From sequence record SRR2962707_5528: 38,678 bases of DNA; one strand, given 5' to 3'. A model generated the notes under the pieces. The model had not been told where the DNA came from, did no database searches, and saw nothing but the letters and a program-made list of their open reading frames with translations. Position 1 is the first letter of the stretch; each line of letters opens with the position of its first letter. A program made the position numbers and the translations under genes. Of the stretch, positions 5,633-37,671 are shown in pieces.

Positions 5633-5940
5633 TGTTGAGTGACGATCTGCAGGGGTTACACAACAGCTTGCTGGCGCACCGCCAGGTCGGTTTAACGATA
5701 GAGCCGGCAGGCATTGCCTCGCTTTGCCGGATTCTTCAGACAGCAGCATCGGATGCCCGTGCGCTGGAGCGTTCGGCCGTTAAACAGCCGTGCCTGAGGG
5801 AGATCCGCACGGTCGGTGGCGACCCGGATGTTCTCGACTTTCAGGACATCAAGGCTCGGCGCGAAATCCTAGACTGGATTGCCGGTCAGGGCGTAACGAT
5901 CCTGCCGCCGGACGATGTCGGGCCGGGAGGTGCGGCATGA
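5632..5940 (+). CDS. Hypothetical phage protein
   Basis: Translationally coupled on both sides. Confidence 0.65.
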   Translation: MLSDDLQGLHNSLLAHRQVGLTIEPAGIASLCRILQTAASDARALERSAVKQPCLREIRTVGGDPDVLDFQDIKARREILDWIAGQGVTILPPDDVGPGGAA

Positions 5941-6716
5941 ACGCACCGGTAAGTATCATCAAGCGACATGTCGCCGACGAGTTCGGCGTACCCGTCGCCT
6001 CGCTCAGCGATCCGAGCCGTCTTCAGAAATACGTCCGCCCTCGGCAGGTTGCGATGTATCTCACTCGGAAATTGACGGTGCTGTCGACCTCCGGTGTCGG
6101 CCGTGCGTTTGGCAACCGTGACCATACCACCGTCATGCATAGCGAGAAGAAGGTGCTGCAGCTCATGAAGCAGGACCGTGATTTTCGGAGAACCGTTGAG
6201 GACATCCGGTCCAGCATAGAGATGGCGGTCGAAGACGCCGAGCTGGCGCCAGTCGACCTGCGGAACATGAACGGCGAACCTCGCCGCAAGATGCTGCGGC
6301 AGGTGAAGAAGACGCCAGGGCGCACGGCCGTAGCCTCTTACCGGCAACTGCTGCACGACCTCAACAGGGAGTTCGGCGAGAAACTCGTTCACGGCGCAAC
6401 TGATGCATTCGGCTCGGAGGTCAAGTTCCTGATCTCCGAGAGCGGTTCATGGTCGATGTTGTCGCTGTTCACCTCGAACGGCCTTCAGGCGCGGCTGATT
6501 GCCTTCGGCGACAGTTGGAAGCGCTTCGGTGGCGTCGAGATCAAGCGCGTTTCATCGACGCAGCCGACGAAGAATCAGGCAAAGAAGCGCCGCTGCAACA
6601 TGTGCTCCGAGACGTTCCTCAGCCGGCACTTCGGTGAGCGGACGTGCCCGAAATGCAAGGCAACAAGAGCCTGGAGAGAACCCGGCGAAGCTCGCCTCGT
6701 GGAGGCGCGGGTATGA
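5937..6716 (+). CDS. DnaA C-terminal (domain IV) HTH protein with C-terminal Zn ribbon
   Basis: RPRQVAMYLTR...VGRAFGNRDHTTVMHS; C-terminal CNMC...CPKC. Confidence 0.85.
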   Translation: MNAPVSIIKRHVADEFGVPVASLSDPSRLQKYVRPRQVAMYLTRKLTVLSTSGVGRAFGNRDHTTVMHSEKKVLQLMKQDRDFRRTVEDIRSSIEMAVEDAELAPVDLRNMNGEPRRKMLRQVKKTPGRTAVASYRQLLHDLNREFGEKLVHGATDAFGSEVKFLISESGSWSMLSLFTSNGLQARLIAFGDSWKRFGGVEIKRVSSTQPTKNQAKKRRCNMCSETFLSRHFGERTCPKCKATRAWREPGEARLVEARV

Positions 6717-8729: not shown

Positions 8730-9380
8730 ATGGGTAAGAACTGGTTTTTCGATCCCCTGAAACCCGGCAAGTACAACGTGATCATCGCCGACGTTCCGTC
8801 GCGCTTTCAGAGCTTCACGCCGTTCGAGACGGCGAAGGGTCCGAACTACCCGGTGATGTCGGATTCATGGATACGCAGCCTACCGGTGCGTCACCTGGCC
8901 GCCGCCGATTGCCTCTTCTGGATCTGGGCGACAATGCCGAAGCTACGTGATTACCTCAGCTACATGGATGCGTGGGGCGTTCACTATGTCACTGGCGGCG
9001 CCTGGTTCAAGCGAACGAAGCACGGCAACATCGCGTACACTCACGGCCATGTTGTCCAGGGCGGCGCGGAGTTGTGGCTTCTCGGTCGTGTCGGCCGTCC
9101 GATCTACGTCGACCGCCCGATCAAGGGTGTCATAGAGACGGAAGAAGACTATGACGCCGAGATCATTACCCGGATCGACGGCGACAACGCCCTGAACGGT
9201 TCGCGCCGCGAGCACTCTCGCAAGCCCGACGAGCAGTACGCCTACATCGAGAAGCTGATGGGGCCTCCCTCGCAGGATGTTCGCTGCTGCGAAATCTTCG
9301 CCCGCCAGCAGTGGCCTGGCTACGACGCCTGGGGAAACCAGGCCGATCACTTCGAACCGATGGGAGGGTCCGGAAAATGA
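8730..9380 (+). CDS. MT-A70 family adenine methyltransferase-like protein (atypical motif IV)
   Basis: YNVIIADVPS, LFWIWAT, REHSRKPDE, EIFAR...WGNQ. Confidence 0.85.
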   Translation: MGKNWFFDPLKPGKYNVIIADVPSRFQSFTPFETAKGPNYPVMSDSWIRSLPVRHLAAADCLFWIWATMPKLRDYLSYMDAWGVHYVTGGAWFKRTKHGNIAYTHGHVVQGGAELWLLGRVGRPIYVDRPIKGVIETEEDYDAEIITRIDGDNALNGSRREHSRKPDEQYAYIEKLMGPPSQDVRCCEIFARQQWPGYDAWGNQADHFEPMGGSGK

Positions 9381-12391: not shown

Positions 12392-13234
12392 GTGGATTTC
12401 TTCGGTCTCAGTGACGCGTCCAGGAACGCGGTGACCGGCGGGCGACGTGATTGTCCGCCGGTTGTTGCCGATCTCGTCTACCAGCGATTGTCAGCGATTG
12501 CGTATCAAGCGGAGGAGATCGCGAAGATCGAACTCGCCCGCCACGGCTACACGATGGTCGAGCATGTTCATGACGCTGCCACGGGCGCCGATGCGATCGT
12601 GGTAGTCAACGAGGCCGAAGTCGTCATCGCCTTTCGTGGCACGCAGCGTGACTACGCCGATATCCTGACGGACCTGAAATTTCGCCAGCGCGCGTTCGTT
12701 ACATCGGCGGACGGGATCTCATGCCGGGTGCACCGCGGTTTCGCCCAGCAGTGGGCGGCGATCCGTGAACAGGTATTTCTGACCGTCAACGCGGCCGCGG
12801 CCGGCCGCCGGCGCATCGTCGCAACCGGTCATTCGCTCGGCGGTGCTCTGGCCGTGCTCTGCTCGATCAGTTGGCGCATGGTCGATCTCTGCATCACGTT
12901 CGGCGCTCCACGCGTCGGCGACGCCGGCGTCGGCCGAGCCATGGAACTATCGCCCGCAAGCCATCGCCGGTACGTCTTCGGTGCCGACGTGGTCCCGGCC
13001 GTTCCGCTGCTGACGATGAACTACCGGCACGACGGCCGCCCGGTCTACCTGACCCGAAAGGGGCGCGCGATCCGTGCCTGTCCGATGTGGCGTGAAGTTG
13101 TCGGCCGATTCCGGTCACTGCTGACGCTCCGATGGTCGAAAGGCTGGGCACTGTGTCCGATTCCGTCACGGATGTTCACGGATCATCGGATCGGCGAGTA
13201 CGGCGCCGCGATCCAGCGGAGCTCGTGGCGATGA
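12392..13234 (+). CDS. Class 3 lipase / alpha-beta hydrolase
   Basis: VIAFRGT, VHRGF, TGHSLGGALA, TFGAPRVG, DVVPAVP, DH. Confidence 0.9.
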   Translation: MDFFGLSDASRNAVTGGRRDCPPVVADLVYQRLSAIAYQAEEIAKIELARHGYTMVEHVHDAATGADAIVVVNEAEVVIAFRGTQRDYADILTDLKFRQRAFVTSADGISCRVHRGFAQQWAAIREQVFLTVNAAAAGRRRIVATGHSLGGALAVLCSISWRMVDLCITFGAPRVGDAGVGRAMELSPASHRRYVFGADVVPAVPLLTMNYRHDGRPVYLTRKGRAIRACPMWREVVGRFRSLLTLRWSKGWALCPIPSRMFTDHRIGEYGAAIQRSSWR

Positions 13235-14648: not shown

Positions 14649-16309
14649 TGCCTGACACGCCTGAGGTCAGGGTGCTTTCCGACGTCCCTCTCGAAGGCAA
14701 AGAGGAGAAGGCGGCGTTCGATCTGGTCGAGGATATCCAGGCGGAGCGGGAAACCCGAAAGCTGAAACCCGCCGACGTGCCGCATGTGCTCCTCGGGTAC
14801 CAGAAGGCGTGGCATGAAGATGACGCGGACGTTCGTTTCGCAAGGAAGTCCCGGCGCATCGGTTTTACCTGGGGCGGCATGGCGGCCGAATCCGTGGTCG
14901 AGGCGATGCCGGCGACGGGCGGCATGGATCAACACTACATGGGCTACAACCAGGGCATGGCTGCCGAGTACATCGGAGACTGTGCCTTCTTCGCCCGCGC
15001 CTTCAACGCCGCGATCCGCGAACGAAGCGTCTGGCGGACGCAGTTGCTGATCGATAAGGAACGGCGCGACATCATGCGCTACAAGATCCAGCTGGCCTCC
15101 GGACAGAAGATCGAGTCCCATTCGTCCAATCCGCACAACTGGCGGGGCCGCAAAGGTCACGCGCGGATCGACGAGGCGGCCTTCCACAAGGATCTCAAGG
15201 AAGTGATGAAAGGCGCGATGGCGTTCCTGATGTGGGGCGGCCGCGTCGATGTCGTATCGACGATGAACGGGGAGGACAATGACTTCACCGAGATCTGCCG
15301 CGACATCGAGGAAGGGAAGTTCCCTCGCTACAGCCTTCATACCGTCACGTTCAAGGATGCACTGGCGGCCGGGTTTTATAAGCGCGTCTGCCTTGTGCAG
15401 GGGAAGGATTGGTCTCCGGCTGAAGAGACGGATTATGAAGAGACGATCCGTTCATCGTATGTCAGTGCCGAGGACGCAGCCGAGGAACTGGACTGTGTGC
15501 CGAAGCGTGGCAGCGGCGCGTACTTCACGCGCCTGCTGATCGAGAAATGCCAGAAGGACGGCATCCCCATCTTGCGTTATCGGAAACCGGCGGACTTCGT
15601 TCTCGCCAACGACCGCCTTCAGGTCACGCAGGAGTGGATCGATACGCAGCTGAAGCCGATCATTGACAGCATGTCGACCGAGCAACGTTCCGTGTTCGGC
15701 CAGGACTTCGGCCGCACCGGTGACTTGTCTGTCGTCTGGCCGCTTCAGGAGGTCACCCCTCAGCTTTGGGCGACGCCGTTCCTGCTGGAAATGCGCAATA
15801 TTCCCTTCGACTGTCAGGAACTGATCGTCGCTTATATCGGCGACAACCTGCCACTGTTCCACCATGCCAAATTCGACGCCCGCGGCAACGGTCAGTCCAT
15901 TGCCGAGAAGATGATGCAGCGCTGGGGCCAGCAGCGCGTTGAATGTGTCATGGCGAGCGCGTCGTCGTATGCAGAGAACTTCCCCCGGTACAAACAGGCA
16001 TACGAAGGCGGCAACATCGTCGTGCCGAAATCCGAGGACATCATCGCGGATCACCGGAGCGTCGTCCTAGTCAAGGGCAACCCGACCATGTCGCCGCACC
16101 GTACAAAAGGGTCGGACGGTTTATTCCGGCACGGTGACACCGCCGTTGCCGGCATGCATGCCTGGGCGGCGGCGCGCACCGAAGGTCAGCCGGCGGCCGG
16201 CGAAAGCATCGACCCGAGACCGGGCGACTTCCGGGCGCAGGACCGACCGTCGATCGGCGGCCGCATGCTGTCCAAGCCCACCTTTCCGTTTCAGAGGAGA
16301 CAACCATGA
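14648..16309 (+). CDS. Terminase large subunit (Mu gp28-like)
   Basis: LLGYQKAW, KSRRIGFTW, IDEAAFH, GQDFGRTGD, HGD. Confidence 0.95.
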   Translation: MPDTPEVRVLSDVPLEGKEEKAAFDLVEDIQAERETRKLKPADVPHVLLGYQKAWHEDDADVRFARKSRRIGFTWGGMAAESVVEAMPATGGMDQHYMGYNQGMAAEYIGDCAFFARAFNAAIRERSVWRTQLLIDKERRDIMRYKIQLASGQKIESHSSNPHNWRGRKGHARIDEAAFHKDLKEVMKGAMAFLMWGGRVDVVSTMNGEDNDFTEICRDIEEGKFPRYSLHTVTFKDALAAGFYKRVCLVQGKDWSPAEETDYEETIRSSYVSAEDAAEELDCVPKRGSGAYFTRLLIEKCQKDGIPILRYRKPADFVLANDRLQVTQEWIDTQLKPIIDSMSTEQRSVFGQDFGRTGDLSVVWPLQEVTPQLWATPFLLEMRNIPFDCQELIVAYIGDNLPLFHHAKFDARGNGQSIAEKMMQRWGQQRVECVMASASSYAENFPRYKQAYEGGNIVVPKSEDIIADHRSVVLVKGNPTMSPHRTKGSDGLFRHGDTAVAGMHAWAAARTEGQPAAGESIDPRPGDFRAQDRPSIGGRMLSKPTFPFQRRQP

Positions 16310-17751
16310 GCGCCTCCATGCTACAGCGCTTTCGTGATGCCTGGCGCACCATCACCGGAGGCGGCGACGCCATGCGTGAGGCAGCCGGGATCAACGTTGA
16401 ACCGGACAGCGAGGAAGGCTGGCGCAAGCTGACCGCTGACCCAGGCAGGGAGCTCAACCCGTTAACGCAGCAACGCATGCGGGAGACGGCTGTTTACCTG
16501 GTGCGGTCCAATCCGCTCGCCAACCGCCTGATCGAACTTCCGCTCGCCTACTTGCTGGCGGAGGGCGCGTCCCTGGAGGTTGACGATGAAGACGCGCAGA
16601 CGATGCTCGATGCGTTCTGGCACGATCCCATCAACAAGATGGACATCAACCTGCCGAAGTACGCGCGTGAACTGGCAGTGTTCGGCGAGCAATGCTGGCC
16701 GGCGTTCGTGAACGAGTACAACGGACACCTGAGGCTCGGTTATCTAGATCCCGCGCTGATCGAGACCGTCGTCAAAGATCCGGACAACGCGGCGCAGCCG
16801 ATCGGCATCGTGACCAGGAAAGACAGCAAGGGTAACGCCCGGCGCTACAAGGTTATCATCAACGGACCCGAGGAAGTGTTCTCACAAAGAACGCGCGAGA
16901 TCCGCGAAACCTTCGATACCGGCGAGTGCTTCTATTTTGACATCAACGCGCTGGTGACGGACAGCCGCGGCAAGTCGGACCTTCTGCCGGTAATGGACAG
17001 CCTCGATGCCTACGACCAGGCGCTGTTCGGCGAGCTGGAACGTTGGCAGTTTCAGCGCCTGTTCATTTGGGACGTGACCCTCAAGGGTGCCACGCCGGAA
17101 GAGGTAAAACAGCGCGCGGGAGAGATCACGACGCCAAACGCCGGGAGCGTCCGTGTCCATAACGACAGCGAGGAATGGAAAGCGGAGTCGCCGGATCTGC
17201 AGGCGGGCGACTCGGATATTCTGGCGCGACTGTTCCGCAATCACATTCTCGGCGGCAACACGATCCCGGAGCACTGGTACGGCGGCGGCGGCGACGTGAA
17301 CCGCGCGACAGCTGCCGAGATGGGTGAGCCCACGATCAAGCTGCTGACCATGCGCCAGCGGACCCTGCGCTACATGCTGGAGATGGTCGGGCAATACCAG
17401 ATCTACCGCCGCCTCGACCCGACCGGCCCGTTGCCCGACCCTGCCGACTTCGACGCAGAACTGAAGCCGCGCGCCGTATTTGCGGAGATCTCCGCGAAGG
17501 ACACATCCAAGTTCGCGACGGCGTTCACACAGGTGGTTGTCGGGTGTGCCCAGGCGGTCGATGCCGGCCTGCTCACCGACGAAAGTGCTGTCGGCCTGAT
17601 CTCCGTCGTCGCCCTGCAACTCGGCTTTGAGATCGATGCCGCGGCGGAGCTCGAGCTCGTTCGCAAGGCGGCAAGCGATCGAGACGCTGAAGACACCTTG
17701 CCGCCGCTCGATCTGGAGGACGATGAAGATGAGCTCGGAGACGCCGCCTAA
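16306..17751 (+). CDS. Portal protein
   Basis: Follows TerL; NPLANRLIE, RGKSDL, IPEHW, NRATA; 481 aa. Confidence 0.8.
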   Translation: MSASMLQRFRDAWRTITGGGDAMREAAGINVEPDSEEGWRKLTADPGRELNPLTQQRMRETAVYLVRSNPLANRLIELPLAYLLAEGASLEVDDEDAQTMLDAFWHDPINKMDINLPKYARELAVFGEQCWPAFVNEYNGHLRLGYLDPALIETVVKDPDNAAQPIGIVTRKDSKGNARRYKVIINGPEEVFSQRTREIRETFDTGECFYFDINALVTDSRGKSDLLPVMDSLDAYDQALFGELERWQFQRLFIWDVTLKGATPEEVKQRAGEITTPNAGSVRVHNDSEEWKAESPDLQAGDSDILARLFRNHILGGNTIPEHWYGGGGDVNRATAAEMGEPTIKLLTMRQRTLRYMLEMVGQYQIYRRLDPTGPLPDPADFDAELKPRAVFAEISAKDTSKFATAFTQVVVGCAQAVDAGLLTDESAVGLISVVALQLGFEIDAAAELELVRKAASDRDAEDTLPPLDLEDDEDELGDAA

Positions 17752-17956
17752 AGTCGTCACGGTGCCGTCGACCGGGAGGCATACCGCCGGCGACATGTTG
17801 CAGTTGGCGGCCAAGAAAGAACTAAGGGAAGCTGTCGTTATCGGCAGGTATGAGAGCGGTGAGCTCTTCATCGATTCCAGCCGAGGCCTGACGACCGCCC
17901 AGGTCAACTGGTATCTGGATCTTTTGAAACTGAACGGTCTGGGGCTGCTCGGATGA
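17729..17956 (+). CDS. Hypothetical protein
   Basis: Fills the gap between portal and MuF; ATGA overlap with next gene. Confidence 0.55.
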   Translation: MSSETPPKVVTVPSTGRHTAGDMLQLAAKKELREAVVIGRYESGELFIDSSRGLTTAQVNWYLDLLKLNGLGLLG

Positions 17957-19320
17957 CCGAAGAAGAGCGGCGTAAGAAGTTCGAGAGAGAACGCCGGCGC
18001 CAGCGCAACCGGAAGGTCCAGATCCAGCAAGAGCTGGATGACGAGGTCAGGGGGCATCTGGAGGAAGCGCGGGACCGGATCAACGGCCGGCTTGGTGGCG
18101 GTGGCACCGACTTCGAGAACTTTGTCCTGCCGTCGCTGAAGCGCGAGATCGATCAGCTACTGACCGAGACCGGGGAGAAGATGGCGGGCGCCGCAGCCGG
18201 CGCCGCGGACAAAGCATTCGACGCCGGCGCGGATCTGATCGACAAGCCGATCGCCGCCGGCGGCATCGAGATCGCCGCCGTTCTGCCGAAACTCGACCGG
18301 GGCCAGGTCATGGCGATCCGCTCTTTCCTCACCGGACGCATGAAGGATGTAACCGCCGAGGCGCACCGCAGGATCAACGCGGAGATCGGACAAGTCATCA
18401 TCGGCACGCAAACCGCGCACCAGGCAACCGAACGCGTAGCCAGGCACCTTACGAAGGGCGGTTTGTCCCGCGCACAGGGAATTGTCCGGACAGAGATCGG
18501 CCGGGCGTACGCAACGGCGTCGCAGCTACGAATGGACCAGGCGGCCGAGAAGTTGCCCGGATTGCAGAAGATCTGGCGCCGATCGGGCAAGATCAATTCG
18601 CGCGTTGCGCACGACCTTGCCGATGGGCAGACCCGGCCGGTCGACAAGCCGTTCGACGTCGGCGGTGAGCAGCTGATGTATCCGCGAGATCCGAAAGGAA
18701 GCGCAAAGAACACGATCCGGTGCGGTTGCGACAATCTGCCGCACATGGCGCACTGGGAAATGAAGCATCCGCAGGATCAGCCGTTCACCGATCGCGAGCG
18801 TGCCCTAAGTCCACTGAAGCACCGGATCGATGCCGTACGCCTGCAGGGCTACGACACCTGGTCGAGGAACGTGATCGCCGAACGCATACCCGCTGCCGGC
18901 AATTTCGAGACGGTCGCCAGCCTGGGTGAACCGGAGCGCGCGTTCCTGGTGGCCCGCGGTATCGAGCCGGCGACGATGGAGATCGCGATCAGCGACCGGC
19001 GTATTCGTCACATGGCACGAGACAGCAAGCGCGGTCGAGGCAACGCCATTCCGCCCGGCGTGATCCGGCGGCTGCCGGACCGGCTACTGGAACCGAAAGC
19101 CGTTCTTTGGCAGAAGACGGCGAAGACGCCGACGCTGTTGTATGTGTTCGAAGTCAAAGGCGAAAAACGCCTGGCGGCCGTCCCGGTCAAGATCCGGCGC
19201 CGGGACCGTCGTGAGAAGGTCCACAGCCATAACTGGATCGCCAGCGGTGGTATGATGGAGCCTCGGGTCTTGGCTGACACGAACTCGTACCAGCTGATCG
19301 ACGGCTCAGTATCGAAATAG
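17953..19320 (+). CDS. MuF head morphogenesis protein with C-terminal PBECR-like nuclease extension
   Basis: RAQGIVRTEIGRA, KIWR, RVAHDLADGQ, LMYPRDP, TIRCGC; extension with IAISDRRIRHMARDSK...LPDRLLEPKAVLW...LLYVF. Confidence 0.85.
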   Translation: MTEEERRKKFERERRRQRNRKVQIQQELDDEVRGHLEEARDRINGRLGGGGTDFENFVLPSLKREIDQLLTETGEKMAGAAAGAADKAFDAGADLIDKPIAAGGIEIAAVLPKLDRGQVMAIRSFLTGRMKDVTAEAHRRINAEIGQVIIGTQTAHQATERVARHLTKGGLSRAQGIVRTEIGRAYATASQLRMDQAAEKLPGLQKIWRRSGKINSRVAHDLADGQTRPVDKPFDVGGEQLMYPRDPKGSAKNTIRCGCDNLPHMAHWEMKHPQDQPFTDRERALSPLKHRIDAVRLQGYDTWSRNVIAERIPAAGNFETVASLGEPERAFLVARGIEPATMEIAISDRRIRHMARDSKRGRGNAIPPGVIRRLPDRLLEPKAVLWQKTAKTPTLLYVFEVKGEKRLAAVPVKIRRRDRREKVHSHNWIASGGMMEPRVLADTNSYQLIDGSVSK

Positions 19321-19345
19321 AAAGGCCCGGCGTTTCCACCGGGCC
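19312..19345 (-). terminator. Rho-independent terminator on the minus strand
   Basis: GGCCCGGtG-GAAA-CgCCGGGCC followed by TTTCTATTT on the minus strand. Confidence 0.6.
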
Positions 19346-19456
19346 GGATATAAATGTCGCCGAGAGGGTGCGCAACGTCCCTGAAGCCACAAGGGTCGGG
19401 AGCGGTCTGATGACCGGCCCCGGAGCGGAACCGACTTCCCGCCAAACACGGCGACT
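19318..19456 (-). ncRNA. Candidate structured small RNA convergent with MuF (tRNA/tmRNA-like topology)
   Basis: -10 TATATT on minus strand; 7-bp closing stem GTCGCCG/CGGCGAC; internal stems; ends in an intrinsic terminator. Confidence 0.55.
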
Positions 19457-19462
19457 GCGGAG

Positions 19463-19491
19463 AATATAGCCCAGATCGCGAAAAAAATCGA
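19463..19491 (-). promoter_or_regulatory. Putative sigma70 promoter of the sRNA
   Basis: TCGATT-N17-TATATT on the minus strand (weak -35). Confidence 0.45.
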
Positions 19492-19566: not shown

Positions 19567-19592
19567 CTCTTAGACCTCTTAAAAGCTCTTAG
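19567..19592 (+). repeat. Triple CTCTTA direct repeat
   Basis: CTCTTAgacCTCTTAaaagCTCTTAg. Confidence 0.5.
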
Positions 19593-19803: not shown

Positions 19804-20067
19804 ATGTCTGAACAAAAACCCCAGGACAAGGCCGCGCCGGCGCCCGCCAAAGACGAGGACGCTGCAGAGGTCATGACCGCGGCTGCCGCCGCGAAGAAGA
19901 TCGGCGGCGCCATTACCGTGTTCAAGCGCAAGGACGGCGAGATCGTCCTCGACAAGGACACAGGTAAGCCGCAGGTCGAGAAAACCGCCCTCGGTGCCAA
20001 GCACATTGTCGCAGTCGGTGAGACGCACGCCGTCACCGTCGACGGCCAGAAACACGAGCTGGCCTGA
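19804..20067 (+). CDS. Small hypothetical head-region protein
   Basis: ATG downstream of the late promoter; ends VTVDGQK. Confidence 0.65.
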   Translation: MSEQKPQDKAAPAPAKDEDAAEVMTAAAAAKKIGGAITVFKRKDGEIVLDKDTGKPQVEKTALGAKHIVAVGETHAVTVDGQKHELA

Positions 20068-20069
20068 TC

Positions 20070-22448
20070 ATGGCCAAGCGTACAGGTTCCTCCGTTCCGC
20101 ACCCGGCCCGCTTCCGCGAGGCCCAGGACGACACTGTGTTTGCAGTGCCGGCGCTGGGTCTCGTGGGGGCGGCCCTGCGCGAAGCTTTTGAAGGCGAGCT
20201 CAGCGGCCTGCAGGAGCAAATGTGGGAAGCTGTGCGTGCTGCATACCGCAAGGGCGACGACGGCCCCTGGCCGGAGATCGAGGCACTGTTTCCCGATTTC
20301 GTCGTCGTCGAAGTGTCGGGCAAACATTTTCATCACACGTACACCGTCAACGACGACGGCGTGACGCTGGGCGCCGCGACTGAAGTCAAACAGGCCTTCG
20401 TGCCGATCGAGGGTGACGACAAGCCCGCCATGCCGGGCGTCCTGTTCATGGAGGCCGAGGCCGGTGAGCGCCCCGGCCGTTATCGCGTACGTGTCATCCG
20501 CGCCGGCCTTTCCGGCAACAACTGCTTTTATCCGGATGCCGTTCTACGTGAGGCGCTGCCGCTTTTCGATGGGGTGCGTGTCTTCGTTAAGCCTGACGAG
20601 CTGCATCTCGCCGGCAAAGGCAAGTCCGTCGATAACCTCGTCGGCCGCCTGGTGGAGCCGCGGTTCGTTGAAGGTCAGAGCCCGGATACGGGCGAAGTCC
20701 AGGCAATCCTTGAAATGATCGAGCCCGAGGGCGCGGTCGCGGTGAAGATCCGCGAAGCGCTCAATCGCGGCATGGCCGATCTGTTCGGCCTCTCGATCGA
20801 CGCGGTCGGTACGGCCGTCGTCCGGCGTGAAGGCAACAAGCCGATGCGAGAAGCCCGGACCATCAAGAAACTCAACTCCGTCGACCTGATCGTTGAACCG
20901 GGCGCCGGCGGAGCTGTTGTCGAACTCATAGAGGCGAAAGCCAACCAACCGGAGACCAAGATCATGGATCGTGACGAACTCATTGCCCTGCTCGAAGCGA
21001 AGGGTTTGCTGAAAGGCAAGAACGCGGAAGATCTCAGCGACGACCAGCTGAAGGCAATCTTCACCGAGGCGCTGGACAATTCTGCAGTCGGCGACACGCC
21101 CGGCGGCGAAACCGGCGACGACAACGACGACGCGGATCTCCGCGAAGCACAGAATGACGACCGCCCGGCGACCGCCGGTGAGGTCCGCATGATCGAGGCG
21201 CGTGCCGCGATGCGCGACACGGTCAATGCATCGAACCTGCCCGACGCGGCGAAGGTTCGGCTGATCGGTCGTTTCTCCGCCATGACGGCATTCCGCGAAG
21301 CGGATGTCGCCCAGGCAATCAAGGACGAAGCCGACTACCTGGCCAACTTCACCGAGTCCGGTACCGTTCAGGGCCTCGGCGATGGTCGGATCGAGGTCGG
21401 CGAGACCCGGTTCGAGAAGTCCCAGCAGATGCTGGAGGCATTCTTCGATCGCGAAAACCCGAACCACCGCCACGCGCAGTCCTTCAAGGAATGCTATGTC
21501 GCGCTGACCGGTGACCGGCGCGTGACTGGCCAGACGCGCGAGTGCGACCAGGCGCTGATGCGTGAATCCATGGGCACCGATACCTTCCCGGACGTGCTCG
21601 GGGACTCGATCGCGCGCCGCATGATCGCGCTCTACCGACAGCCGGACCAGTACGACCTCTGGCGGCGCATCGTCGACGTGACGCAGATCAACGATTTCCG
21701 CACGCAGGAGCGCACCCGCATGGGCGGCTTCGGCGATATGCCGGTCGTTGCCGAGCGGGCGCCGTACGAAGAGCTCGCCGATCCGTCCGACGACAAGGCG
21801 ACCTATGCCGTCGAGAAACGCGGCGGTACCGCCTCGGTGACGCTGGAGATGATCAAGAACGACGATACCGGTGTCATCCGCCGTATCCCGAACCTGTTGT
21901 CCCGCGCGTCCAAGCGGACGCTCGGCAAGTTCGTGTTCGACTTCCTGCGGACAAACCCGGCGATCTACGATGGCGTTGCGCTGTTCCATGGCGATCACAA
22001 CAACCTGTTCACGACCGCACTTTCGGACGCCCAGTTCGCCGCTCATCGCCTGGCGATGAAGAACCAGCAGGAACTGGACGGTCATGACACGCTCGGCTTC
22101 GGGCCGCGTTACCTGATCGTTCCGGACGAGCTCGAAGAGACCGCGTACGACATGTTCCGCCGTGACACGAACAACGATGAGACGTTCGTGCAGACCTTGA
22201 AGCCAGTAATCCTTCCGGTCTGGTACTGGACGGATGCGAACGACTGGTGCACCGCTGCCGATCCGATGGACGGTGTCGGCATCGAGGTCGGTTTCCTCGA
22301 TGGCCAGGAAGAACCGGAACTGTTCGTCCAGGACAGCCCGACCGGCGGCTCGATGTTCTCGAACGATCAGACCACGTACAAGCTCCGTCACATCTACGGC
22401 GGCGTGGTCTGTGACTTCCGCGTCTTCACGAAAGCGGTGGTCGCCTAG
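20070..22448 (+). CDS. Fused prohead protease-scaffold-major capsid protein
   Basis: Protease part (IRAGLSGN..YPDAVL, GLSIDA, SVDLIVEPGAGG), acidic scaffold, C-terminal Mu gpT-like capsid (ALFHGDHNNL, PRYLIVP, GFLDGQEEPE). Confidence 0.9.
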   Translation: MAKRTGSSVPHPARFREAQDDTVFAVPALGLVGAALREAFEGELSGLQEQMWEAVRAAYRKGDDGPWPEIEALFPDFVVVEVSGKHFHHTYTVNDDGVTLGAATEVKQAFVPIEGDDKPAMPGVLFMEAEAGERPGRYRVRVIRAGLSGNNCFYPDAVLREALPLFDGVRVFVKPDELHLAGKGKSVDNLVGRLVEPRFVEGQSPDTGEVQAILEMIEPEGAVAVKIREALNRGMADLFGLSIDAVGTAVVRREGNKPMREARTIKKLNSVDLIVEPGAGGAVVELIEAKANQPETKIMDRDELIALLEAKGLLKGKNAEDLSDDQLKAIFTEALDNSAVGDTPGGETGDDNDDADLREAQNDDRPATAGEVRMIEARAAMRDTVNASNLPDAAKVRLIGRFSAMTAFREADVAQAIKDEADYLANFTESGTVQGLGDGRIEVGETRFEKSQQMLEAFFDRENPNHRHAQSFKECYVALTGDRRVTGQTRECDQALMRESMGTDTFPDVLGDSIARRMIALYRQPDQYDLWRRIVDVTQINDFRTQERTRMGGFGDMPVVAERAPYEELADPSDDKATYAVEKRGGTASVTLEMIKNDDTGVIRRIPNLLSRASKRTLGKFVFDFLRTNPAIYDGVALFHGDHNNLFTTALSDAQFAAHRLAMKNQQELDGHDTLGFGPRYLIVPDELEETAYDMFRRDTNNDETFVQTLKPVILPVWYWTDANDWCTAADPMDGVGIEVGFLDGQEEPELFVQDSPTGGSMFSNDQTTYKLRHIYGGVVCDFRVFTKAVVA

Positions 22449-36843: not shown

Positions 36844-37671
36844 ATGGAGTCACACCCGAATTCCGGCCTTACGGCCGTCACGCCGGTTCTGCCGGTCGCA
36901 CCCTACATCGGCGGTAAGAAGAACCTTGCCAAGCGTCTCTGCGCGCTGATCGAGTCCACGCCCCACAAACTCTATGCCGAGCCGTTCGTCGGCATGGGCG
37001 GAATATTCCTCCGCCGGCGTTTTCGGCCGAAATCCGAGGTCATCAACGACCGTAACCGCGAGGTCGCCAACCTGTTCCGGGTCGTGCAGCGGCATTACGT
37101 CCCGTTCCTTCAGATGATCCAGTTCCAGTTGACCGTGCGCGCCGAATTCGAACGCCTGGTCAAGACGGCGCCGGATACACTGACGGACATGGAGCGCGCT
37201 GCCCGGTTTCTCTACATCCAGCGTACCAACTTCGGCGGCAAGGTGGGCGGCACGCCCTCATTCGGCGTCTCGCCCGATCGACCGGCCCGGTTTGACGTGA
37301 CCAAGGTCGGGCCGATGCTGGAGGATCTGCACGCACGCCTCGCCGGCGTTGTGATCGAGTGTCTGGACTTCGCCTCGTTCCTGACTCGCTACGATCGGCC
37401 GCACACGCTCTTCTATCTCGATCCGCCGTATTGGGGCTCGGAGTCCGACTACGGCAAGGAGCTGTTCTCACGGGCCGATTTCGAGCGTCTCAGAGACGTT
37501 TTACGGGGCCTTAAGGGGCGGTTTATGATGTCCCTGAACGACGTCCCCGAGGTCCGTGAGTTGTTCGGAGAGTTCGACATCGAGGCCGTCGACACCACGT
37601 ACTCGATCGCCAAGGCTGGCAACAAGCGCGTCGGCGAGGTGATTATTATGAATGAGGTGCAGCATGAGTAG
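36844..37671 (+). CDS. D12-class N6-adenine DNA methyltransferase (at Mu mom position)
   Basis: YIGGK, YAEPFVGMG, EVIND, FYLDPPYW. Confidence 0.95.
   Translation: MESHPNSGLTAVTPVLPVAPYIGGKKNLAKRLCALIESTPHKLYAEPFVGMGGIFLRRRFRPKSEVINDRNREVANLFRVVQRHYVPFLQMIQFQLTVRAEFERLVKTAPDTLTDMERAARFLYIQRTNFGGKVGGTPSFGVSPDRPARFDVTKVGPMLEDLHARLAGVVIECLDFASFLTRYDRPHTLFYLDPPYWGSESDYGKELFSRADFERLRDVLRGLKGRFMMSLNDVPEVRELFGEFDIEAVDTTYSIAKAGNKRVGEVIIMNEVQHE

Follow-up and report, generated by a model that had tools for sequence, protein, structure and literature searches.

A tRNA-like RNA convergent with MuF-PBECR genes of Mu-like prophages: a candidate antidote to a predicted virion-borne RNase

To our knowledge, all described polymorphic or delivered bacterial toxins are neutralised by proteins. 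In the layout of type III toxin-antitoxin (TA) systems, the antitoxin is an RNA that lies upstream of the toxin gene and is co-transcribed with it. According to the accessible text of a report on ToxIN, this RNA usually consists of tandem repeats (PMC8860590). For MuF polymorphic toxins, the accessible part of one survey gives a small downstream ORF behind 89.4% of the toxin genes and hypothesises that the toxins enter with phage DNA (Jamet 2017, PMC5576092). PBECR domains, as far as the accessible text of another study goes, may spare host tRNA (Iyer 2017, PMC5512222). Here, we describe a muF gene with a PBECR-type C-terminal tail that is faced by a putative tRNA-like RNA gene. On comparative sequence evidence, which is strong, the feature is real and its RNA family is uncatalogued.

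The MuF protein and its C-terminal domain

The DNA analysed, a stretch of 38,678 nucleotides called the window, is a Mu-like transposable prophage encoding a MuA-type transposase, MuB, Gam, GemA, a late activator, gp27, terminase, portal, MuF, a protease-capsid protein, and a contractile tail. muF and the RNA gene form a pair that occupies the middle of the genome, within the head module, with the portal gene (16306-17751) before muF and the protease-capsid gene (20070-22448) after it.

17953..19320, plus strand: muF, 455 aa, a MuF head-morphogenesis domain and then a C-terminal PBECR/MuF-C domain
18820..19317, plus strand: PBECR/MuF-C domain of BECR fold, residues 290-455, with conserved H353 (19009-19011), R356, K359, N427, and S431 (19243-19245)

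The MuF protein matched PHROG 2468 (head morphogenesis) with an E value of 4e-31 and, under the gathering score, Pfam Phage_Mu_F (E 7e-4, residues 146-259). An earlier sequence-only reading of this DNA had described a long MuF extension past the CGC motif, with no credible immunity ORF in the roughly 480 bp behind it, and had proposed a PBECR-like domain for the extension; the first two points were confirmed and the third was supported. The CGC motif occupies residues 257-259 of the ORF at 17953-19320 and is followed by 196 residues. A MuF domain joined to an exchangeable tail domain, encoded among the head genes of a temperate phage, is the arrangement of MuF polymorphic toxins; the small immunity ORF directly downstream was not found in the window. 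There, no ORF of at least 40 aa starts within -25 to +40 of the muF stop, and the next credible gene start is an ATG at 19807, 486 bp past the stop. When seven small post-muF ORF stretches were searched by tblastn among 314 loci, five had no match, and the other two, on the minus strand and overlapping the RNA or the muF end, matched only the family of L253, L267, and L314. These comparisons suggest that no conserved immunity ORF lies behind this muF.

To characterise the extension, residues 290-455 were compared by sequence and by structure. The AF2 model (pLDDT 94) shows an N-terminal helix and a four- to five-stranded sheet, as in the BECR core, and its best structural matches were BrnT, CdiA-CT, RelE, and colicin D at Z 5.2 to 4.5. 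BECR-type toxins made up 13 of the 14 top structural matches (rmsd 3.6 to 4.4 over 76 to 91 residues), with a best Z of 5.2 that is modest alone. Foldseek against the PDB gave no match at E≤0.001, and the tail by itself, searched directly against viral contigs, had no match either. By sequence, a set of 50%-identity representatives contained 226 relatives of the tail at E≤0.001. In the ESM-Atlas, the ten best family-bearing matches were all of the tail's own family or clan, with scores of only 0.80 to 0.83. Pfam MuF_C matched this MuF with an E value of 0.015 (15.9 to 18 bits compared to a gathering cut-off of 27.6). Among 39 aligned members of the tail family, matches at E≤0.01 were to MuF_C in 20, PBECR3 in 8, and PBECR2 in 1, and the best values in relatives reached 7.5e-7 (MuF_C) and 9.6e-9 (PBECR3).

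Conservation was counted across 150 aligned tail rows. At the H353 position, 123 of 147 homologues have His and 20 have Arg; 132 rows keep R356, K359 is kept in 133, and N427 in 136, and the S431 column is Ser or Thr in 140 of 146, with Asn in the enterobacterial tails. The His (or Arg) in the helix and the Ser/Thr in strand 4 are thus present, and an active-site role is assigned to them by analogy with the His plus Ser/Thr layout of active PBECRs, as given in the accessible text of Iyer 2017 (PMC5512222), which this tail matches. Judged from the model, the tail is a BECR-fold PBECR/MuF-C domain with its active-site positions kept and probably an RNA-cutting domain.

Several other features of the prophage were recorded. 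An 86-aa ORF without a family match (19807-20067) stands just before the protease-capsid gene, in which protease and major capsid are fused in a single 792-aa product (20070-22448). The lysis region contains a class 3 lipase gene (12392-13234; Pfam E 9e-22) two genes past a glycosyl hydrolase 108 endolysin, and the prophage also encodes a DnaA C-terminal-type HTH protein, an MT-A70 methyltransferase, and a D12-class adenine methyltransferase (5790-6716, 8730-9380, and 36844-37671). Its centre carries one further element:

19567..19591, no strand: three phased CTCTTA repeats at the prophage centre, the only such match in the window

A CTCTTA-like motif follows 9 of 25, 16 of 45, and 37 of 98 muF genes, whatever the tail type, and the Mu gyrase cut site is annotated in the gap matching the post-muF gap of the window. 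The repeats are probably a gyrase-site-like element of the backbone, separate from the toxin/RNA pair, and part of the remaining post-muF gap is probably taken up by them, unrelated to the tail domain.

A tRNA-like RNA gene behind PBECR-tailed muF genes

The minus strand behind muF contains the following features:

19463..19491, minus strand: sigma70-type promoter, with -10 TATATT (19468-19463), a 17-nt spacer, and a weak -35 TCGATT (19491-19486); predicted start about 19456-19458
19356..19455, minus strand: tRNA-like non-coding RNA of about 100 nt, convergent with muF, defined by family alignment, covariation, and model R1
19449..19455, minus strand: 5' strand of the closing (acceptor-like) helix P1, partner 19356-19362; 7 bp, pair probabilities 0.91 to 1.0
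19424..19443, minus strand: D-arm-like hairpin with conserved loop AAGUCGG; 20 nt identical in L253 and L314
19397..19422, minus strand: variable arm, differing in length and sequence between homologues
19365..19382, minus strand: T-arm-like hairpin with loop UUGCG, conserved in the family
19312..19345, minus strand: intrinsic terminator, a 9-pair stem with GAAA loop and a U-tract overlapping the muF stop; peculiar to the window copy

In the window copy alone, the RNA body (109 nt) folded no better than its shuffles, with a z of -0.76, or of -1.82 when the terminator was included, the T-arm-like hairpin was absent from the single-sequence minimum-energy fold, and a consensus promoter scan returned no promoter in the region. 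Because the body is not unusually stable and the weak -35 was missed by the scan, the case depends on homologues.

We therefore turn to the survey of muF loci. MuF motif searches yielded 240 loci, with 80 kept from each of the 182, 104, and 82 confirmed; together with three phage records and the window, these made 244 loci, 189 of them distinct, from which 9 at contig ends were dropped. The remaining loci comprised 25 with the window-type tail (class I), 16 with a second PBECR-like tail (class II, a class assigned by eye), 33 with other tails, and 106 with no tail. Class II is supported by Pfam PBECR3 or PBECR2 matches in 2 members, by hhalign to class I (probability 49%, E 1.7e-4), and by a BECR-like tail model with a best Z of 6.3. 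Inspection by eye placed a closed minus-strand element behind muF in 24 of the 25 class I loci and in 15 of the 16 class II loci. A blind detector, defined as a perfect helix of at least 7 pairs with a -10-like box 3 to 10 nt before it, was positive in 22 of 25 and 15 of 16, i.e., 37 of 41 PBECR loci, compared to 7 of 33 loci with other tails and 10 of 106 with short MuF. The Fisher P values of 8e-21 and 2e-9 overstate independence since the loci are related, and the detector has a background of 9 to 21%. One PBECR2 locus, L238, had no detected element. Searched against the 33 other-tail loci and 100 of the 106 short-MuF loci, model R1 gave nothing at E<0.4; the model is narrow, and class II, the enterobacterial type, and most of the distant held-out elements escaped it.

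Other tails (ART, DUF6883, and several with no Pfam match) are mostly followed by overlapping ORFs of 50 to 130 aa, which form recurring protein families of 33 to 85% identity. The ORFs behind other tails agree with the 89.4% given in Jamet 2017 (PMC5576092). ORFs read across the RNA elements matched only between near-identical loci. A simple count of small ORFs after the stop was uninformative in GC-rich DNA (16/25, 12/16, 28/33, and 36/106 for class I, class II, other tails, and short MuF). These data bear out the proposal of the sequence-only reading that an RNA stands in place of an immunity ORF, and they suggest that PBECR tails are an exception among MuF toxins with respect to the small downstream ORF. 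Among the other tails, HxH-motif tails without a Pfam match in seven loci (L027, L041, L044, L130, L132, L189, and L240) are followed by a recurring Cys/His-rich protein of about 70 aa, probably an unnamed toxin-immunity family, and a short helical tail without a Pfam match (L032, L117, L127, and L172) has its own recurring downstream protein of about 80 aa.

Comparison of the 39 elements supports a conserved structure downstream of homologous MuF-PBECR genes. P1 is present in all 39 as a helix of 6 to 13 pairs that differs in sequence, with a mean duplex energy of -21.2 kcal/mol for cognate strands compared to -11.5 kcal/mol for non-cognate strands. Class I elements share this closing helix, the hairpin with the AAGUCGG loop, one or two variable arms, and the T-arm-like hairpin with the UUGCG loop. 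Pairs were named by hand and then counted, which favours the named structure against slid controls: in class I, 15 of 19 named pairs change on both sides compared to 9.9 in shuffles (0 of 500 reaching this), and in class II, 14 of 26 do so (0 of 500; subset of 7 distinct of 16), including 4 of 6 pairs of a pseudoknot that joins the 5' region to the T-like loop. From the raw MAFFT alignment, RNAalifold recovered 7 pairs only, because the helices are out of register in that alignment. The structured body of the earlier proposal thus stands on covariation across homologues and not on the folding of the single copy. Class I elements have CG in both loops, through which the T-like loop may pair with the D-like loop; L090 alone has CC in the D-like loop and GG in the T-like loop, a swap that we treat only as a lead because it is a single event. 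In Magnetococcales-type loci (L092, L095, L103, L122, and L125), the tail has KRPAR instead of the His helix and the D-like loop of the RNA is longer, a possible case of protein-RNA co-variation. A hammerhead reading of the plus-strand CUGAUGA was dropped, as this sequence falls in the variable arm and is not conserved.

The -10 box reported earlier was found at 19468-19463, and a TA...T box lies 3 to 9 nt upstream of the element on the minus strand in 32 of 39 homologues; on the plus side, none of the 39 has such a box, and among 2,079 control positions, the rate is 3.6%. With sequences aligned on the -10 alone, the letters of TTG occur 17 nt upstream in 29, 27, and 27 of 39. G-U cells outnumber A-C cells (49 vs 11). 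The box, the TTG, and this G-U bias together indicate that the RNA is the minus strand; the promoter of the window copy thus draws its backing from homologues. The terminator fared differently. Its hairpin, GGCCCGGUG-GAAA-CGCCGGGCC at 19345-19324 with the U-tract behind, is present in the window, but it is not family-wide: in 35 of 39 elements, the end of the closing helix falls between -3 and +11 nt relative to the muF stop, which leaves no room for one. Most RNA copies lack a terminator, and their transcripts would continue into muF as antisense.

Likeness to tRNA varies within the family. Enterobacterial and Pasteurella copies have D- and T-loops near those of true tRNA, with a canonical T-loop UUCGA, and in RefSeq, tRNA-OTHER is the label of many E. 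coli copies and tRNA-Tyr that of one satellite unit, which shows likeness only. A canonical cloverleaf with fixed anticodon arm and T-loop was not seen, a variable arm occupying the anticodon position. ARAGORN predicted no tRNA in 48 sources, window included, and Rfam gave no match for the RNA, its tRNA model included. The literature search turned up no description of this RNA or of the satellite arrays below; it did not extend to subscription papers or to the supplements of PMC5737381 and PMC10690425 (10,006 candidate viral RNAs), in which the family could be present. The accessible text of PMC13502914 mentions Sp18 and not the RNA.

Held-out loci, RNA alleles, and satellites

A pattern built on the RNA alone returned 9 matches, i.e., 3 known loci, 5 chance matches in coding DNA, and 1 new true element (L253, 48.6 bits), which faces a MuF-PBECR gene. 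Loci found by the tail only, in two samples of 401 genomes and in phage records, served as a held-out set once three duplicates, a contig end, a frameshift, a doubtful homologue, and L267, of the family of L253, had been removed. Of the 13 loci whose His helix looked intact or was unaligned, the detector picked 9, and 2 others were evident by eye; in the five without it (Mu, D108, MuM16-1, L281, and L283), no element was found and the next gene abuts. L001, without the Ser/Thr, is likewise without the RNA. As the Mu tail is 50% identical to an RNA-bearing E. coli tail, this is joint loss inside one family, with few independent events. Several His-to-Arg homologues keep the RNA, and together with the enterobacterial tails, which have Asn and keep it as well, they suggest that the RNA may track RNA binding rather than catalysis.

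Among 5,426 E. coli genomes, full muF was found in 226, and the muF end, RNA, and start of the next gene were also found in 226. Enterobacteria have at least three RNA alleles, each of which follows the last ~90 residues of the tail and not the backbone, although simple linkage of adjacent DNA could account for this tracking. In L265, muF and its RNA are followed by an orphan PBECR C-terminal stump with a second, different RNA. L269 apparently has two tandem elements behind muF, and L290 and L304 gave enterobacterial-type RNA matches for which the script found no adjoining long ORF.

Arrays of two or three tRNA-like RNAs were found in 14 E. coli genomes, the same 14 that alone carry a full SSB-PerC-Mor module. 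Three array elements inspected are capsid-less and PICI-type, without muF, and represent two backbones at two sites, being inserted in mdtP or beside yicC.

L272:38646-46639 (also L260, L311, and L312): capsid-less PICI-type element with a Mor/C-family activator, a short-repeat tract, and an RNA array behind a sigma70-like promoter

The array units are closest to different phage alleles (67/78 vs 53/82; 65/82 vs 56/81). Because the RNA occurs in 230 genomes and muF in 226, at least 10 of the 14 array genomes also carry such a prophage, compared to 4% overall; five were seen directly, and one was seen without. We infer that these PICI-type elements use Mu-like helpers, and L272-type elements are candidate satellites of Mu-like phages; the satellite Mor protein gave no significant alignment with the late activator of the window. 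Arrays free of MuF argue for a trans-acting, allele-specific role of the RNA.

Possible roles of the RNA and comparison with described systems

We consider it rather probable that the tRNA-mimic RNA is the antidote to a virion-delivered RNase, the MuF tail, and rank this reading first because it accounts most simply for the fold and residues, the conserved RNA, its pairing with PBECR tails, the joint loss, the cassettes, and the MuF-free arrays. MuF would be a minor component of the head that probably passes into the next cell along with the phage DNA; gp7 of SPP1 is an established capsid component. The tail, with its colicin D/CdiA-like fold, would act as a BECR RNase, probably tRNA-directed. 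The convergent gene would express the tRNA-shaped RNA from its own sigma70 promoter, independently of the late operon, so that the RNA can exist in the lysogen and moments after DNA entry. The RNA may bind the tail domain as a decoy or inhibitor, replacing the immunity protein of other MuF toxins, in a pairing that is presumably allele-specific, and such pairing would explain why capsid-borrowing satellites carry several RNA alleles. Since satellites carry arrays of such RNAs, the RNA is most likely the putative antidote. Against this reading stand the modest structural Z values (5.2 and 6.3), Pfam matches below gathering, His-to-Arg tails that keep the RNA, Asn at the Ser/Thr position of enterobacterial tails, the suggestion in Iyer 2017 (PMC5512222) that host tRNA may be spared, the linkage that could account for allele tracking, the many copies without a terminator, and L238 without an element. 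If true, an RNA, a tRNA mimic, as antidote would connect polymorphic toxins with RNA antitoxins. It would also provide a first testable function for the PBECR/MuF-C tails, which are common in Proteobacterial phages, and account for a class of tRNA-OTHER annotations found in over 200 E. coli genomes. The finding also points to satellites of Mu-like phages and possible helper policing.

More tentatively, the pair could be a virion-borne password, a stronger version that we hold to be doubtful: particles would inject a MuF-PBECR poison, and survival would need the matching tRNA mimic from the injected DNA or a resident prophage. If true, it would penalise satellites and transduced DNA travelling in a borrowed capsid, and would explain the multi-allele arrays in Mor/C-carrying PICI satellites as an RNA-level arms race between transposable phages and hitchhikers.

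It is unlikely, though still to be weighed, that the pair is a non-toxic ribonucleoprotein, in which the tail binds, matures, or carries the tRNA-like RNA and the two serve the phage at entry, for example by decoying host anticodon nucleases or RNA-based defence or by aiding packaging or ejection, with satellites copying the RNA for the same service. This reading fits most of the observations; the His-to-Arg versions that keep the RNA favour it, joint loss and satellite arrays fit it equally well, and the 3' end of the many copies without a terminator must come from processing. In the accessible text of Iyer 2017 (PMC5512222), RNA binding is predicted for the inactive MuF-C of Mu, and counter-defence for PBECRs. 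However, the RNA occupies exactly the position of the immunity ORF of sister MuF toxins and travels with orphan C-terminal stumps, a generic decoy needs no obvious allele matching to the tail, and Mu propagates without the RNA and without an intact tail.

Control in cis or by antisense, in which the convergent transcript would extend into the 3' end of muF and silence leaky late transcription in the lysogen, or the folded element would be a processing site of the late mRNA, appears quite improbable. It would suit the convergent layout, the overlap or abutment of closing helix and muF stop in 35 of 39 elements, and a P1 so nearly all Watson-Crick (383 pairs, with 9 GU and 7 AC) that it would fold on either strand. 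Yet the satellite arrays have no muF as target, a tRNA-like fold with loop-loop covariation is left unexplained, the window copy stops at a terminator overlapping muF by a few bases only, and the G-U bias and promoter favour a minus-strand RNA. Very improbable is a decayed or repurposed true tRNA gene (a replacement for the toxin-cut tRNA) or incidental remnant, since, for all the RefSeq labels and UUCGA T-loops, the covariation is strong, ARAGORN found no tRNA, the arm at the anticodon position varies in length and sequence, and the loops of the window-type RNA are non-canonical.

Compared to described systems, the putative antidote and its tail share with MuF polymorphic toxins an N-terminal MuF, a place in the head module of a temperate phage, interchangeable tails in one clade, and an orphan C-terminal cassette, here in L265; the account of those toxins, in its accessible part, mentions no RNA (Jamet 2017, PMC5576092). 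With Mu gp30, the locus shares the domain family, the MuF fusion, and the His plus Ser/Thr layout described in the accessible text of Iyer 2017 (PMC5512222), whose main text uses "noncoding" 0 times and leaves an associated RNA undescribed. Mu itself differs in that the His helix is lost, there is no RNA, and gp31 overlaps the gp30 stop. Colicin D, CdiA-CT tRNases, and BrnT/RelE (PDB 5znm, 5i4q, 6cp9, 3u97, and 2kc8) have the BECR fold in common with the tail, but they are neutralised by proteins, sequence identity is 3 to 18%, and a shared fold leaves the substrate unshown. The DUF3800-associated motifs resemble the present RNA as structured RNAs tied to one protein domain; in the accessible text, they are diverse, lie on either strand and side, and have an unknown function (Weinberg 2017, PMC5737381). 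The protein here is another one, and the RNA has no Rfam match.

In type III TA systems (ToxIN, PMC8860590; AvcID, PMC10511110; AbiF/RCd22, PMC12373285), according to the accessible texts, a protein toxin, often an RNase, is checked by a bound structured RNA, and AbiF/RCd22 is prophage-borne, as is the pair here. Here, the toxin would have another fold and is a putative virion protein, and its partner is one tRNA-shaped RNA, convergent and with a promoter of its own, in place of upstream repeats, with orphan multi-allele arrays in satellites. The earlier label of a type III-like TA system holds as an analogy, not as membership: the RNA is single, downstream, on the opposite strand, and under its own promoter, with arrays only in toxin-less satellites, and no described type III toxin (ToxN, CptN, TenpN, AbiF, or AvcD) or RNA family was found, Pfam giving MuF_C/PBECR only and Rfam nothing relevant. 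Anyone counting every RNA-neutralised nuclease as type III would file the pair there. By analogy, it would work like a type III TA system and sit like a MuF toxin-immunity pair, failing one defining feature of each.
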